Source of the DNA: Acidobacteriota bacterium
GTDB taxonomy: Bacteria > Acidobacteriota > UBA6911 > RPQK01 > JAJDTT01
Direction of reading: 5' to 3'
DNA length: 64,000 nt
Assembly: GCA_965263035.1 (NCBI GenBank)
Contig: OZ253580.1
Span: 4,704,001 to 4,768,000, forward strand
A program made the position numbers and the translations under genes. Positions within the stretch are counted from its first letter, which is position 1, and the number at the start of each line of letters is the position of its first letter. Below are positions 59,336 through 63,601 of this stretch, piece after piece. The notes beneath the pieces were generated by a model, which saw only the letters and a program-made list of their open reading frames with translations, had not been told where the DNA came from and made no database searches.

Positions 59336-60327
59336 ATAGGGTGAGTCGCTTCCTGATGCGGGGCCTCCGGCGTCCCGAGTCGGGTCCCCTCGTGGGCTTG
59401 CTGGCTCTGGGACTCCTGTTCGAGATCCTCTCGGGCGGCAAGTTCCTGACCTTCCCCCAGCTGAGCGCTCTGGCCGCTCTCTCGGCCTCGCTGGGCATGG
59501 TGGCCCTGGGCGTGACCCTGCTCATGATCAGCGGGGAGTTCGACCTCTCCGTCTCTCAGACCTTCGCCTTGGCGCCTATCGTCATGGGCCGCCTGATCAC
59601 CGATCTGGACTGGCCGGCGGCTGCTGCCCTTGGGTTGGCGCTGGCGGCCGTGCTGCTGGTGGGTCTGATCAACGGTTTGTTGACCACGCTGGCCCGAATC
59701 CCTTCGCTGATCGTGACCCTGGGGATGTTGTTCGCCGTCACCAGCCTGAATCGGATCCTGGCCGGCGGCTATCCGGTTCAGGTCTATGGCCTGGAGAGTC
59801 CGCTGATCCGCCTCATGGGAGAGGACGTTCCGGCCACGCCCGTTGGCGCCCCCTTTCTCTGGATGTTGTCCGTGGCGGCCATTCTCTGGTTTGTCCTGGA
59901 GCGGATCGGCTACGGAAACTGGACCCGGGCCGCCGGGCACTCGGGTGGAAGCGTGGCCCGAGCCATGGGTGTGCCCGTCGCCAGAGTCAAGCTGACCAAC
60001 TTTGCCCTGTGCGCGGGGCTGGCAGGATTGGCGGGCTGTCTTCAGCTGGCGGATTTCGGGTCGTCCGGCGTGAGTTCGGGAGAAAACTCCAACCTGCTGG
60101 CCATCGTGGCCGTAGTCATGGGGGGCACCTCTCTCTTCGGGGTTCGCGGAACCATTCTGGGGACGCTGCTGGGGACCCTGATCCTGGGCGCGCTCAAGAC
60201 CGGACTGATCCTGGTGGGGACCAGGGGCGAATACTACACGGGGCTGATCGGCGTCCTGCTGTTGGTTGTGGCGGTGATCAACGCCCGAGCGGAGTCAGTA
60301 CGCCGCGGGGGTGAGAACAGCTCGTGA
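59332..60327 (+). CDS. Sugar ABC transporter permease (RbsC-like)
   Basis: GEFDLSV, IPSLIVTLG, ARAMGV, VVMGGTSLFG. Confidence 0.9.
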   Translation: MNRVSRFLMRGLRRPESGPLVGLLALGLLFEILSGGKFLTFPQLSALAALSASLGMVALGVTLLMISGEFDLSVSQTFALAPIVMGRLITDLDWPAAAALGLALAAVLLVGLINGLLTTLARIPSLIVTLGMLFAVTSLNRILAGGYPVQVYGLESPLIRLMGEDVPATPVGAPFLWMLSVAAILWFVLERIGYGNWTRAAGHSGGSVARAMGVPVARVKLTNFALCAGLAGLAGCLQLADFGSSGVSSGENSNLLAIVAVVMGGTSLFGVRGTILGTLLGTLILGALKTGLILVGTRGEYYTGLIGVLLLVVAVINARAESVRRGGENSS

Positions 60328-61106
60328 ACAGCCCAGTGGGATCCCCCCAACCGGTCGTGGAATTGATGGAGGTGTCCAAGGCCTACGGCGAAGTGGAGGT
60401 GCTGGGAAACGTCACTCTCAGCCTGGGCGCCGGGGAAGTGGTGGCGCTGGTCGGAGACAACGGGGCCGGCAAGTCCACGCTGGTCAAGATCGTCAGCGGT
60501 TATCTGAGGCCGACCTCGGGAAGGCTGGTCGTGGGGGGCCGGGAGGTCCGGTTTGCATCCCCCCGGGAAGCCCGCCGGTGCGGGATCGAGACCGTCTATC
60601 AGGATCTGGCCATCATCGGCCAGCTGAGCCTGTGGCGGAACTTCTTCCTGGGTCAGGAAATGAGGAGAAAGTGGCTCGGCGTGAGGGTCCTGGACCGGAA
60701 CGCCATGAGAAGGATCTGTCTCGAACGGCTCCGCGATTTCGGCTTGGAGAGTGTCCGCTCGCCGGACCAGCTGGCGGCGTCCCTGTCGGGAGGGGAGCGC
60801 CAGACCCTCGCCATCGCCAGGTCGGTCCACTTCGAATCGCGACTGCTGATACTGGACGAGCCGGTGGCCTCACTTTCCGTACGGGAGGTCCGCCGGGTTC
60901 ACGACACCATTGACCAGGCCAGGAACCGGGGGTTGGGCATCCTCTACATCGACCACAACATGAATCACGTGGTTCCCGTAGCCGACCGGATCGCCGTCCT
61001 GGAGCGGGGCCGCCTCAAGACGGTGGTGCACAGGGGTGAGGTGAGCGCCGCCGACCTGAACGACCTGCTGGCCCGAGAAGCGGGAGCGGCGGTTTCCAAC
61101 CGCTGA
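60324..61106 (+). CDS. Sugar ABC transporter ATP-binding protein
   Basis: GDNGAGKST, VYQDLA, LSGGERQ, LILDEP. Confidence 0.93.
   Translation: MNSPVGSPQPVVELMEVSKAYGEVEVLGNVTLSLGAGEVVALVGDNGAGKSTLVKIVSGYLRPTSGRLVVGGREVRFASPREARRCGIETVYQDLAIIGQLSLWRNFFLGQEMRRKWLGVRVLDRNAMRRICLERLRDFGLESVRSPDQLAASLSGGERQTLAIARSVHFESRLLILDEPVASLSVREVRRVHDTIDQARNRGLGILYIDHNMNHVVPVADRIAVLERGRLKTVVHRGEVSAADLNDLLAREAGAAVSNR
61082..61103. repeat. REP-like palindrome overlapping the 3' end of the ATPase gene
   Basis: GGGAGCGGCGGTTTCCAACCGC, reverse complement of the 8269 type. Confidence 0.7.
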
Positions 61107-61536
61107 ACAGGAGTATCCATGTTGCAAGTGGTGGGTGCTAATCGGTGTTTCCATCCCGTGTCGTTAGTACGTGATCTGTCCGGTCCAAAGGGCACAGGGT
61201 TAGGAGGAGCGTTCTTCCGCCGGAGGTGAGGCGGAGATCGAGCTGGATCCAGCGGGCGCCGTGCAGGGGGCGATGAGTGGACGGATCAACTGGATCGAGG
61301 GACCTGAGATCGTCGACGTCAGTCCTCCGGGAGGTCCGGATACGCCCTGGGGAGCGTCGGGTCAAGCCTCCGGCTCCTCCGCTTCGCTGCGACCCTTCGG
61401 GTGACCCGGCGCTCCCCAGGGCGTGAAGAGCTTTCATGGCCGTAAGCAAGCTTCCGGCCAGACTTGACCGGAAGTTCGACAGACGGCCATCAGGGGGTCC
61501 ACACGCTCCCTTTCCTCACGGGGTCTCTCCGTGGCC

Positions 61537-62485
61537 TCAGAAGGTCGCTCGGGGCGCTACGGGCAACCAGGTGCGGTCCTGCCGGACGAGGGTGTTGGCC
61601 AGGACGATAAGCTTGCGCATGACGGCGACGAGGGCCACCTTGCCGGGCTTTCCGCGCTCGCTCAGCCTCCGGTACACCTCGGCCAAGTCGGGGTTCCAGC
61701 GCAGGGTGGACACGGCCGGCATGTACAGGAGCCGTCGCGCCCGCGCCCGTCCGCCCCGGATGAAGGCCCGGCCCTGCCAAGCCCCCGACTCGCGCGGAAC
61801 GGCGGCCAACCCGGCCAGACTGGCGGCGGCCTTGCCGCTGAGGGCGCCCAGCTCGGGCATCTCGGCCAGCAGACCGGCGGCGGTGGTGGCCGCGATCCCC
61901 GGGATGGAGGTGAGGATCTCCAACTTGCGGGCCCGCGCCTCGTCGGCCGCAATCAGCGTCTGCAATTTGCGGTCGATGGCGCGCAGGTGGCGCTCGAACA
62001 TGTTGATCTGGATCTGGTTCTGCTGTTTGAGCAGGGGTTCGCGGAGCTGTCGGCGGCGGTTGAGCGTGGCCGTGCGCTGGCGCATCAGCGCGTCCCGGGA
62101 CGTCTGCAGATCCTGGAGCCGGCGTTGCGTTTTGGACGGCACCTGGGTCCGGCGCGGCTCCAGCGTGGCGGCCAGCTGGGCCAGTTTCCGAGCGTCTACG
62201 GCGTCGGTCTTGGCGCGGCTCCCGGTCGCCTCGGCGAAGCGCCGCGCCTGCCAGGGGTTCACCTTCGCCAGCGGCAGCTTCGCTTTGGACAGCGCTTCCT
62301 CGAGGTCCCGGTGGTAGGGGCCGGTGGCCTCGTACGCGACGCACTCGACCGGAGTTCCGATCCAATCGATCAGCGCCCGGAAGCCGGCCGGGTCATTGTC
62401 GAACTGGGCGGAATGGCCGTCGGCCAGCCGGTGCGCGTCCAGGTGCGCTTTCGAGATGTCGATGTCTAGCGGTATGCTGTTTCAT
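61537..62485 (-). pseudogene. IS110 DEDD recombinase with a +1 frameshift near codon 6-7
   Basis: IDISKAHLD, YEATG, KTDAVDA, SIPGI, RESG, GGR, AVMRKL; ATG 62485 to stop spans 949 nt (3n+1). Confidence 0.85.
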
Positions 62486-62489
62486 CTTT

Positions 62490-62652
62490 CCTGTCTCCTG
62501 TGCTTGTCATTCGGGCCTTGATGCCCTTGTATCCATTCAGGACATCGGGAAAGACGGTGGCCGACCTGACTGCTTTTCGGTTCGCAAAAGTCCGCGGCGG
62601 TACGGTCCAGCCACCGCCGTCCGGGTCGCTCATGAGCGACCCGGACGGCCCC
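62490..62652 (-). ncRNA. Predicted IS110 bridge RNA
   Basis: 5' hairpin followed by two stem-internal-loop domains carrying ACCGCCGC (target), ATGGATAC and GACAAG (donor) segments. Confidence 0.75.
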
Positions 62653-62667
62653 ATTTAAACAGACAAG

Positions 62668-62772
62668 CGGCGGTTTCCAACCGCCGACTTCCCGAGCAAC
62701 CACCGCCCGACCAGCCCGCGGGCGCACGACGGAATGGGCGTGCCGGAATGGGCGACTGGAAATCGTCCCTCC
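62668..62772. repeat. REP-like palindromes flanking IS110
   Basis: CGGCGGTTTCCAACCGCCG and GGGCGACTGGAAATCGTCCCTCC; inverted arrangement resembling 8221-8291. Confidence 0.75.
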
Positions 62773-62800
62773 AAGTCGCCCCTGGATTTTTCTCAGAGGT

Positions 62801-63601
62801 TCAATACGGCAGCAACCCGCCTTCGACGTTCATGGCGCTGGACGTGATGTAATCGGCGTCGTCAGAGCAGAGGAACGCCACCACGTTGGCCATGTCCTCC
62901 GGTTGCTGAATCCGGCCCAGGGGAATGCTGCCCACGGCTCCCGCCTTGATCGAGCCCTCGGGAACGTCCAGGATCCTGGCGGTCTCACGATCGATCAGGT
63001 CCCACATGGGAGTGTCGATGATGCCGCCGCAGATGCTGTTGACCAGGATCTGGTGGTCTGACAGCTCCAGACCCAGTTGCTTTCCGAAGCCGATCGCGGC
63101 GTGCTTGCTGGCGGCATAGGCCCCTAACGGGGTGTTCTTCCCCGGCGCGATCTTTCCGGCCCCCGAAGCGTTGATGATGATCCGCCCCCCGTGGCCTTGC
63201 CGGATCATCTGCCGAGCCGCAGCAGTGCAACAAAGGAAGACGCCCTTGGCGTTGACGGCCATCAGGCGGTCCCAGCTCGCTTCGTCGGTGTCGATCAGGC
63301 GTGCGACGATGCCGATCCCGGCATTGGCCACCAGGATGTCCAGCTTGCCGAAGGCTTCTACCGTCGCGGCAATCATGGCGTCGACGTCGCCGGATCGCGT
63401 CACGTCCGCCTGCAGACCCACGGCCTCCCCGCCCGCGGACCGAATCTCCGCCGCTGTCGACTCGGCGCCGTCCCGGTCAATGTCCGCCACCCCCACCCGG
63501 GCCCCTTCCCGGGCCAGACGCAGGGCAATGGCCCGGCCGATGCTGCGTCCGGCGCCGGTGACCAACGCTGTTTTCCCCTCGATTTCCGGATATCTGGCCA
63601 T
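62801..63601 (-). CDS. SDR family oxidoreductase (acetoin reductase-like)
   Basis: TGAGRSIG, ANAGI, YAASK, DTPMWD. Confidence 0.9.
   Translation of the reverse strand: MARYPEIEGKTALVTGAGRSIGRAIALRLAREGARVGVADIDRDGAESTAAEIRSAGGEAVGLQADVTRSGDVDAMIAATVEAFGKLDILVANAGIGIVARLIDTDEASWDRLMAVNAKGVFLCCTAAARQMIRQGHGGRIIINASGAGKIAPGKNTPLGAYAASKHAAIGFGKQLGLELSDHQILVNSICGGIIDTPMWDLIDRETARILDVPEGSIKAGAVGSIPLGRIQQPEDMANVVAFLCSDDADYITSSAMNVEGGLLPY

Follow-up and report, generated by a model that had tools for sequence, protein, structure and literature searches.

Described Bridge-RNA Systems and an Acidobacteriota Relative

The targeting of repetitive extragenic palindromes (REPs) by insertion sequences (ISs) of the IS110 group, including IS621 of Escherichia coli, is already described, together with a promoter that is re-formed across the junction of right end and left end (the RE–LE junction), a two-loop bridge RNA, the concordance of natural guides with their targets, and longer right target guides (RTGs) in some orthologs, in the parts of the report drawn on here (PMC11208160). 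In IS621, mismatches are poorly tolerated (PMC11208160), Asp11, Glu60, Asp102, Asp105, and Ser241 are named as the catalytic residues, and short handshake guides located 3′ of the RTG and the right donor guide (RDG) pair with position 7 of the non-cognate DNA (PMC11208158). Multi-copy IS110 elements also reside in host REPs of Pseudomonas putida (ISPpu9 and ISPpu10), and some copies of ISPpu9 have a small RNA (sRNA) gene downstream of the transposase, according to the portions of those accounts used here (PMC12288879; bioRxiv 10.64898/2026.03.19.712850). This text concerns an IS110-group element in a 64,000-nucleotide stretch of the genome of an uncultured Acidobacteriota bacterium (assembly GCA_965263035.1, contig OZ253580.1, positions 4,704,001–4,768,000; the whole stretch is called the window). 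The element extends from 61112 to 62665 on the minus strand (1554 bp, counting one CT core), and very probably moves by bridge-RNA-guided recombination.

The element is similar to IS621 in its DEDD/Ser recombinase with five aligned catalytic residues, its CT core and 14-bp target and donor layout (7 + 2 + 5), its left-end RNA with a 5′ hairpin, target loop, and donor loop, its 8-nt left donor guide (LDG) and handshake positions, and its natural REP targets (PMC11208160; PMC11208158); a putative promoter, here read from letters only, may likewise be rebuilt across the RE–LE junction. An initial annotation of the window had assigned this architecture to the IS621 type, and the locus matches the published layout on every point checked. 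Unlike IS621, the element has a target of ACCGCCG-CT-CC... rather than ATCAGGC-CT-AC, a left target guide (LTG) that pairs with eight bases rather than nine, an RTG of apparently 5–8 nt in most alleles rather than 4, and a 425-nt right end with nested repeats (PMC11208160; PMC11208158); its host belongs to an uncultured Acidobacteriota lineage, and the alignment with the IS621 recombinase is only moderate (phmmer E 2.5e-32). The best-scoring solved relative is the ISCro4 transposase (PDB 9t56; named by the depositor's molecule name), a likeness that concerns the recombinase alone. The likeness to ISPpu9 and ISPpu10 lies in the presence of multiple copies in host REPs, and the sRNA gene of ISPpu9 resembles a variable 76-nt repeat in the right end of the present element; host phylum and targets are different, however, and no sRNA gene is shown in this right end (PMC12288879; bioRxiv 10.64898/2026.03.19.712850).

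Termini, Empty Site, and REP Target

The left junction is GGAAACCGCCG-CT followed by TGTCTG (core CT at 62667–62666), and the right junction is CATGGATA-CT followed by CCTGTT (core CT at 61113–61112); in full, the minus-strand letters are CGGCGGTTGGAAACCGCCG-CT and then TGTCTGTTTAAAT at 62686–62653, and TTGCAACATGGATA-CT and then CCTGTTCAGCG at 61127–61101. Both junctions had been read in the same way in the initial annotation. A BLAST comparison of the stretch with its own 6.198-Mb genome (G000) identifies 12 full-length copies (95–100% identical) and two partial ones, of which one has only the left end (c13L) and the other only the right end (c14R). These 14 copies have common termini, whereas their flanks are unrelated further out. 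CT is present on either side of the element in all copies. The left junctions (13/13) are ACCG(C/A)CG-CT followed by TGTCTG, with GCCGCCG in c6 as an exception, and the right junctions (13/13) are ATGGATA-CT followed by C (CC in 12, CT in c10).

The orthologous locus of the same-genus genome G007 has no insert and reads GGAAACCGCCG-CT-CCTGTTCGGCGG, i.e., left flank, a single CT, and right flank (in a wider reading, GGCGGCTGGAAACCGCCG-CT-CCTGTTCGGCGGTTGGAAACCGCTGCTCC). In addition, 61111 and 62666 are directly joined in a contig of the public run X16, from which exactly 1554 bases are missing and in which the two sides share a 2-letter overlap; the element is present in contigs of runs X1 and X2, which span both of its junctions. 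Insertion is scarless at the CT core, with no duplication beyond CT, and the ends map exactly as had been claimed.

The target site is a tandem REP. Of the 91 genomic occurrences of the empty-site string ACCGCCGCTCC (11.9 expected), about 65–75 lie within the REP consensus TCGGCGGTTGGAAACCGCCGCTCC, a hairpin whose 3′ arm and tail make up the target. The claim that the empty site is an intact host REP is borne out by these counts and by the uninterrupted site in G007. The window copy occupies the first of two REP units that lie between genes for an ABC ATPase and a short-chain dehydrogenase. A sister REP family, GTCGCCGCTCC, occurs 80 times in the genome.

The frame of the ABC-transporter ATPase (60324–61106, plus strand) continues as far as the second REP unit, in which it ends 6 nt short of the IS, and the last ATPase residues are therefore encoded by REP sequence. 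Elsewhere in the genome, a 24-nt left-end tip is stranded in a REP (G000:C1:5976163-5976208), apparently as a deletion remnant.

Structure of the Predicted Bridge RNA

The left non-coding end encodes a putative bridge RNA (Table 1). A 167-nt segment (62652–62486) has a minimum free energy of -80.9 kcal/mol (z -5.87; 0/200 shuffles are as stable), and its fold begins with a 5′ hairpin, which is followed by two hairpins that each have a large internal loop; the second of them also contains an inner stem-loop. The 5′ hairpin and the stems GGTGGC/GCCACC, GACC/GGTC, and TCCTG/CAGGA that had been singled out in the initial annotation are all present in the left end.

The structure was written as 39 pairs, which were counted on two alignments. 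In a MAFFT alignment of 10 homologs, 95.3% of the cells pair and seven pairs are changed on both sides; when partners are slid by 1–3 columns as controls, 34–54% pair. The second alignment contains 14 homologs, including two from alphaproteobacteria that had been left out of the first because their 5′ part was misaligned and that were restored via a covariance model (R1); it was fitted to the structure through R1 and so leans towards it. Here, 97.0% of the cells pair (38–51% in the slid controls), and 18 of the 39 pairs are changed on both sides, at least one in each of the six helices. Within the 5′ stem-loop, 11 of the 14 counted pairs are changed on both sides in the homolog alignment. Folding and a covariance model from homologous ends were the checks that had been proposed for the structure, and their outcome upholds it.

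The model R1 gives 13 full-score matches in the genome, one for each copy that keeps its left end and each upstream of the recombinase gene. It also matches one weak relic (38 bits; G000:C1:5242103-5242208) of a left-end RNA that is related but differs in its target loop. With a threshold of E 1e-15, R1 has matches in six of the nine genus genomes searched (G000 included) and in none of the four searched genomes from other genera of the order, which are samples only. The purine-rich CAGGAGACAGGAAAG (62486–62500, minus strand) that precedes the recombinase ATG supplies the 3′ side of each of the two donor-loop stems, and the predicted fold suggests that the ribosome-binding region would be buried by bridge-RNA folding.

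Guides and Their Covariation with Flanking DNA

Guides were read by the rules given in the IS621 papers, in the parts drawn on here, according to which the core is included in all four guides and the 3′-side guides are complementary to the top strand (PMC11208160; PMC11208158). The assignments that had been made from the window letters hold: ACCGCCGC at 62601–62594 is identical to the left target flank plus the first core base (8/8), ATGGATAC at 62536–62529 is identical to the left donor, and GACAAG at 62508–62503 is the reverse complement of the core plus right donor. The LTG matches its own flank at 8/8 positions in 12 of the 13 copies and at 7/8 in c6 (A opposite G). A G is located two bases ahead of both LTG and LDG, as are G48 and G121 in IS621.

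A single 8-mer match is not overwhelming in a genome of 62% G+C in which ACCGCCGCT occurs 207 times, and the closing stems of the target loop are invariant among the 10 closest homologs; ACCGCCGC might thus be a REP fragment, or a chance GC-rich likeness in the left end, with the site recognized by the recombinase protein alone. This explanation is highly improbable, however, given that the loop string changes with the flank in at least six allele/flank combinations from three phyla-level groups while the sequence between the loops is constant, and that the donor loop independently matches, and covaries with, the element's own ends.

The combinations outside this genome come from a search for related loci, which gave 60 loci, with protein identities of 84–94% in Acidobacteriota metagenome-assembled genomes (MAGs), 64–69% in Candidatus Foliamicus (hereafter Foliamicus), and 36–43% in one alphaproteobacterial MAG, and one Maritimibacter fragment. 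The LTG ACCGCCGC is found with the flank ACCGCCG (L032, L034), GUCGCCGC with GTCGCCG (L031, L035, L036) or GCCGCCG (L033), CACGCCGC with CACGCCG (L039, L089), GCCCUCGC with GCCCTCG (L041–L044, L046), GUCCUCGC with GCCCCCG (L040), and GUCCUCGU with GCCCTCG-C (L045). In the alphaproteobacterial group, UUCGUGUCU is found with TTCGTGT-CT at 27 of 33 readable left junctions, and the other six differ at 1–2 positions. The five LTG mismatches of L033, L040, and L045 all have U in the guide facing C on the top strand, which corresponds to a U·G wobble with the bottom strand. L037 (left end truncated), L090 (a fragment), and the right junctions of L032 and L034 (beyond the fetched flank) were left out of the comparison; the left junction of L039 and L089 was found further upstream, and that of L038 was not found, so that only its RTG was compared.

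The RTG likewise follows the right flank: AUGGGAG is found with CTCCCAT or CTCCCA (allele B of the present genome, see below, and Foliamicus), GUCUGGAG with CTCCAGAC (L038), and CGUGAG with CTCACG at 34 of the 35 alphaproteobacterial right junctions read. These relatives suggest, from their sequences, RTGs of 5–8 nt. The RDG follows the start of the left end (GACAAG/CTTGTC, UACAAG/CTTGTA, GAUAAG/CTTATC), and the handshake base of the donor loop is C opposite target G7 in Acidobacteriota and Foliamicus, and A opposite T7 in the alphaproteobacterial group. In a second subfamily (genomes G006 and G007), the LTG pairs at 6/8 positions and the RTG GAGGGAG at 7/7 with CTCCCTC. Covariation between guides and flanks, which the initial annotation had named as a check, is therefore found both within the genome and among homologs.

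Members of the second subfamily (L103, L108, and L111 in G006; L116, L118, L120, and L122 in G007) have the same donor guides, with about 335 nt extra between the tip and the RNA; their LTG is (U/A)UGUAUGC, their RTG GAGGGAG, and their target ...GGTATG-CT-CCCTC, and a junction promoter would stand far from the RNA. In two same-genus genomes, another IS110-like element with the right end TTGCAAAGCTGGAGA-CT is nested in the left end, about 20 nt from the tip (L038:1440-1500; L039/L089:1114-1775).

Within the genome, the RTG is GGAG in 9 of the 11 other full copies (counted as GGAG/AUGGGAG, in 10 of the 12 other copies), and GCAG in c10 and the partial copy c13L; 9/11 of the other full copies pair at 4/4 positions or more. 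For the window copy, CTGCTTTTCGG, the reverse complement of the guide region CCGAAAAGCAG, matches the flank CTCCTGTTCAG at 8/11 positions. At target positions 12–18, own-allele matches amount to 44/84 in a hand count. This count is only suggestive: flanks that derive from REPs are not independent of one another, and chance alone may account for matches between the constant CCG and the next REP unit. These matches suggest an extended RTG of possibly up to 11 nt.

Table 1. Features of the IS110-group element and its flanks (window coordinates)
Feature	Coordinates	Strand	Description	Basis
Insertion sequence	61112..62665	minus	Left end TGTCTG... to right end ...ATGGATA-CT	Shared termini, G007 empty site, X16 contig
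Left target	62666..62686	minus	REP hairpin CGGCGGTTGGAAACCGCCG and core CT; left target positions 1–7 (ACCGCCG) at 62674–62668	REP consensus
Right target	61083..61111	minus	CCTGTTC, then second REP unit AGCGGTTGGAAACCGCCGCTCC (61104–61083)	Window letters, G007 site
Left non-coding end	62486..62665	minus	180 nt; encodes putative bridge RNA	Fold, homolog pair counts, covariance model
-10-like hexamer	62653..62658	minus	TTAAAT, 7 nt inside left end	Read from letters
5′ stem-loop	62616..62649	minus	15 pairs, loop CAUG	Fold, homolog alignment
Target-binding loop	62556..62615	minus	Closing stems GGUGGC/GCCACC and GACC/GGUC	Fold, pair counts
Left target guide	62594..62601	minus	ACCGCCGC; left target positions 1–7 and first core base	Own-flank match, covariation
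Right target guide region	62570..62580	minus	CCGAAAAGCAG; core-proximal GCAG at 62573–62570	Guide–flank comparison
Target-loop handshake guide	62568..62569	minus	UC; U can pair with donor position 7 (A)	IS621 rule (PMC11208158, part drawn on)
Donor-binding loop	62486..62553	minus	Outer stem CUUUCC/GGAAAG, inner stem UCCUG/CAGGA, internal hairpin GGGC/GCCC (62526–62513)	Fold, pair counts
Left donor guide	62529..62536	minus	AUGGAUAC; last 7 nt of right end (ATGGATA) and first core base, 8/8	Window letters, homologs
Right donor guide	62503..62508	minus	GACAAG; reverse complement of CT and TGTC at left end, 6/6	Window letters, homologs
Donor-loop handshake guide	62501..62502	minus	CA; C can pair with target position 7 (G)	Copies, homologs
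Recombinase gene (broken)	61537..62485	minus	Frame beyond frameshift open to stop at 61539–61537	Comparison with intact P0001
Right non-coding end	61112..61536	minus	425 nt; closes with TTGCAA (61127–61122), left donor ATGGATA (61120–61114), and core CT (61113–61112)	Window letters, right ends of relatives
Nested palindromic repeat	61350..61425	minus	76 nt	Missing from c10, c11, c12, and an X16 contig

Recombinase

The recombinase of the window copy is broken by a frameshift: codon 6 has gained one base (62469), and the shifted frame ends at a stop after 30 codons. The initial annotation had implied such a frameshift, and the extra base is also present in the truncated copy c13L but absent from the contigs of all four public runs. 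An intact 315-aa recombinase (P0001) is encoded by nine of the 12 full copies; that of c12 has 314 aa as a result of a 3-nt deletion, and that of c9 stops at 274.

Family membership was scored on the intact P0001, the window copy being frameshifted. P0001 contains the domains PF01548 (8.9e-23) and PF02371 (9.4e-19), and scores 207 bits against NCBIfam NF033542 ('IS110 family RNA-guided transposase'; cut-off 140). Its closest solved relatives are ISCro4 (9t56; 1.4e-35, residues 3–299) and IS621 (8wt6). The chain of the IS621 structure is numbered +2 relative to the native protein, and after correction for this, Asp9, Glu52, Asp94, Asp97, and Ser233 of P0001 align with the five catalytic residues of IS621 given above, in the same order. 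By these profile and alignment matches, the recombinase is an IS110-family RNA-guided DEDD/Ser transposase.

Right End and Putative Junction Promoter

The 14-bp donor is flanked by AAC/GTT, a 3-bp sub-terminal inverted repeat; in the IS110 group such repeats measure 2–3 bp. Joining of the ends in a circle would place the right-end TTGCAA 17 nt from the left-end TTAAAT, as judged by eye only, and TTGCAA or TGACA is kept at the right ends of relatives. A promoter scan of the linear locus finds no sigma-70-like site; a promoter confined to the circle would give this outcome, which is not evidence either way. Re-formation of an IS110 promoter across the RE–LE junction is the published precedent (PMC11208160).

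The length of the right end varies among relatives: about 430 nt in L031, about 320 nt in L035–L037, about 157 nt (60–160 nt) in Foliamicus, about 100 nt in L038, about 60 nt in L045, and about 18 nt in the alphaproteobacterial group, compared with 425 nt here. The excess length is therefore lineage-specific, and the 76-nt repeat accounts for part of it. Pieces that are 83–95% identical to this repeat are present in at least four other places in the genome (G000:C1 about 1959693, 2981641, 136520, and 4205342), and it looks like a second REP family, or a family of miniature inverted-repeat transposable elements, that entered the IS.

Several observations weigh against movement guided by a bridge RNA, or against this copy as an example of it. 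The doubt that the initial annotation had expressed over the right target guide was well placed: GCAG matches CTCC at 3/4 positions, with a C–C mismatch at target position 10, next to the core, and the same guide in c10 pairs with its right flank CTCTCGAG only at the core. At its ninth position, the LTG has G where pairing with the second core base would require U. No Rfam family exists for the RNA, and a scan of 60800–63000 gave three chance-level matches (E 0.3–0.9). The circle-junction string ATGGATACTTGTCTG occurs 0 times in the assembly. The public runs consist of contigs only, in which the start, end, and strand of an RNA are not visible; the summed depth of 62508–62641 is raised in the RNA-library run X16, and more weakly in X1 and X2, which may reflect allele contigs piling up. 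Depth in RNA-library contigs cannot show expression, and the uncovered parts in run X19 prove nothing.

Finally, the right end, at 425 nt, exceeds the left end in length (180 nt, typical of the IS110 group), the reverse of the usual IS110-group pattern and that of the IS1111 group, as set out in the relevant part of PMC11208160. The element might accordingly belong to the IS1111 group, with a seekRNA-type guide in the long right end, where a strong hairpin is located (61342–61424), and with the left-end structure being secondary. We consider this very improbable. Both guide loops are in the left end, and relatives with the same left-end RNA include those with the short right ends listed above (alphaproteobacterial, Foliamicus, and L038). 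The right-end hairpin is the 76-nt repeat, which is missing from 3/12 copies; the sub-terminal inverted repeat is only 3 bp, compared with 7–17 bp in the IS1111 group; and the best-matching solved structures are those of IS621 and ISCro4.

Proposed Mechanism of Movement

Bridge-RNA-guided recombination would, by analogy with IS621, proceed as follows. Excision of the element as a circle would bring TTGCAA and TTAAAT together across a single CT core, and transcription from the resulting junction promoter would cover about 165 nt of the left end. In the folded RNA, the 5′ hairpin would be followed by two hairpins with internal loops; the first of these loops would read the host REP and the second the joined ends of the element, with the LDG AUGGAUAC reading ATGGATA-C and the RDG GACAAG reading CT-TGTC. 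A DEDD/Ser recombinase tetramer would exchange strands at the CT core, and the circle would thereby be inserted with no target duplication beyond CT. The window copy would have landed in a REP in this way and later lost its recombinase through the 1-nt insertion at codon 6. With a broken recombinase and a mismatched RTG, it could therefore move only with a recombinase, and probably an RNA, supplied by intact copies, and is probably inert alone.

Target-Loop Alleles within the Genome

Outside the target loop, there is little difference among the left ends of the 13 copies, and the 3′ half of this loop is present as four alleles. Allele A (UUUUGCGAACCGAAAAGCAGUC) is found in the window copy, c10, and c13L; allele A′, which is allele A but with GGAG, in c7; allele B (UGUUACGAACCGUAUGGGAGUG) in c2–c6 and c8; and allele C (UGUUAGGAACCGUUUGGGAGUG), with the LTG ACCGACGC, in c9, c11, and c12. 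The allele-C copies are located in ACCGACG-CT sites, and RTG position 14 is U in allele C, opposite target A14, and A in allele B, opposite REP T14.

Substitutions are clustered in the loop: 7 of the 22 differences in 1554 positions between the window copy and c2 (98.7% identical) lie within 21 nt of it (binomial P 1.2e-8 for the given 21 nt; 1.8e-5 when multiplied over all positions of such a segment). All four combinations of left-end positions 14 and 17 with positions 78–98 are present, and the loop would therefore have been exchanged between lineages. In addition, c10 has allele A within an otherwise c9-type sequence, and this patch in a foreign lineage implies gene conversion, as far as the letters can indicate. 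We infer the alleles, the substitution hotspot, the loop exchange, and the retargeting considered below from one genome. Base 62593, just 3′ of the LTG, has a further variant in contigs of the RNA-library runs X16 and X19, and the population therefore has more target-loop alleles than the genome shows.

The target of allele C is in another repeated IS, about 38 nt in from the left end of that IS and about 38 nt upstream of its start codon. This host IS is multi-copy and encodes a 501-aa DDE transposase (PF13751, PF05598, PF01609). IS1111-group elements that target the ends of other mobile elements are similar in this respect; those elements, however, have long sub-terminal repeats, and the target here is within the host IS, upstream of its start codon. 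The host of c9 is 89% identical to those of c11 and c12 over 400 nt, the right-end remnant c14R is located in a further variant of the host IS, and the c9 and c11 elements are 98.6% identical to each other; at least two insertions at the host-IS site would therefore have occurred. Four host-IS copies with the site ACCGAAG-CT-CCTT are all empty, as are two with the exact ACCGACG-CT-CC, i.e., occupancy is 4/6 for exact sites and 0/4 for one-mismatch sites, numbers that are too small for a test.

On this evidence, we give about even chances to the proposal that the 3′ half of the target loop is a fast-evolving exchangeable cassette and that allele C (LTG C5→A, RTG A14→U) has been retargeted from REPs to the leader of the DDE IS, at least twice independently. 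For the retargeting, which is a side claim only, the alternative is that a single chance insertion was then copied by transposition of the host IS. The hosts of c11 and c12 are 99.2% identical over 400 nt, and those two copies may be one event; this alternative is nonetheless unlikely as a whole, in view of the more distant host of c9, the variant that harbors c14R, the similarity of the c9 and c11 elements, and the four empty ACCGAAG-CT sites.

The left leader of the host IS is an insertion hotspot (G000:C1:145980-146060 and other copies), and another element, at about 4172064–4173833, is inserted about 15 nt further into the host IS.

Novelty and Biological Meaning

The initial annotation had proposed a new natural bridge recombinase programmed against a REP. 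IS110-family membership, the REP target, and covarying guides stand, and the sites of the other genomic copies, named in that annotation as a check, agree with them (13/13 left junctions in ACCG(C/A)CG-CT). Its novelty is narrower than was claimed: the copy in the window is frameshifted and has a mismatched RTG, and the element, itself new, is of a kind already known from IS621, ISCro4, and ISPpu9/ISPpu10. The supplementary tables of PMC11208160 hold thousands of predicted orthologs, among which this element or its relatives may already be present. What would be modestly new, as judged from the sequences, is the presence in one genome of four target-loop alleles that appear to be shuffled between lineages, one of them apparently retargeted to the leader of another IS.

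Since the kind is established, the field is not changed by this element. It is a complete natural bridge system in which all six guide segments are readable, with nine intact recombinase genes in the same genome, and it could join the panel of orthologs that is screened for genome engineering. It also provides a natural experiment, in which sister alleles that differ at single guide positions sit at matching sites and one-mismatch sites are empty. If the reading of allele C is true, it would represent a natural example of an IS redirected by its RNA to another IS, and would show in the wild how few mutations are needed to retarget such an element.

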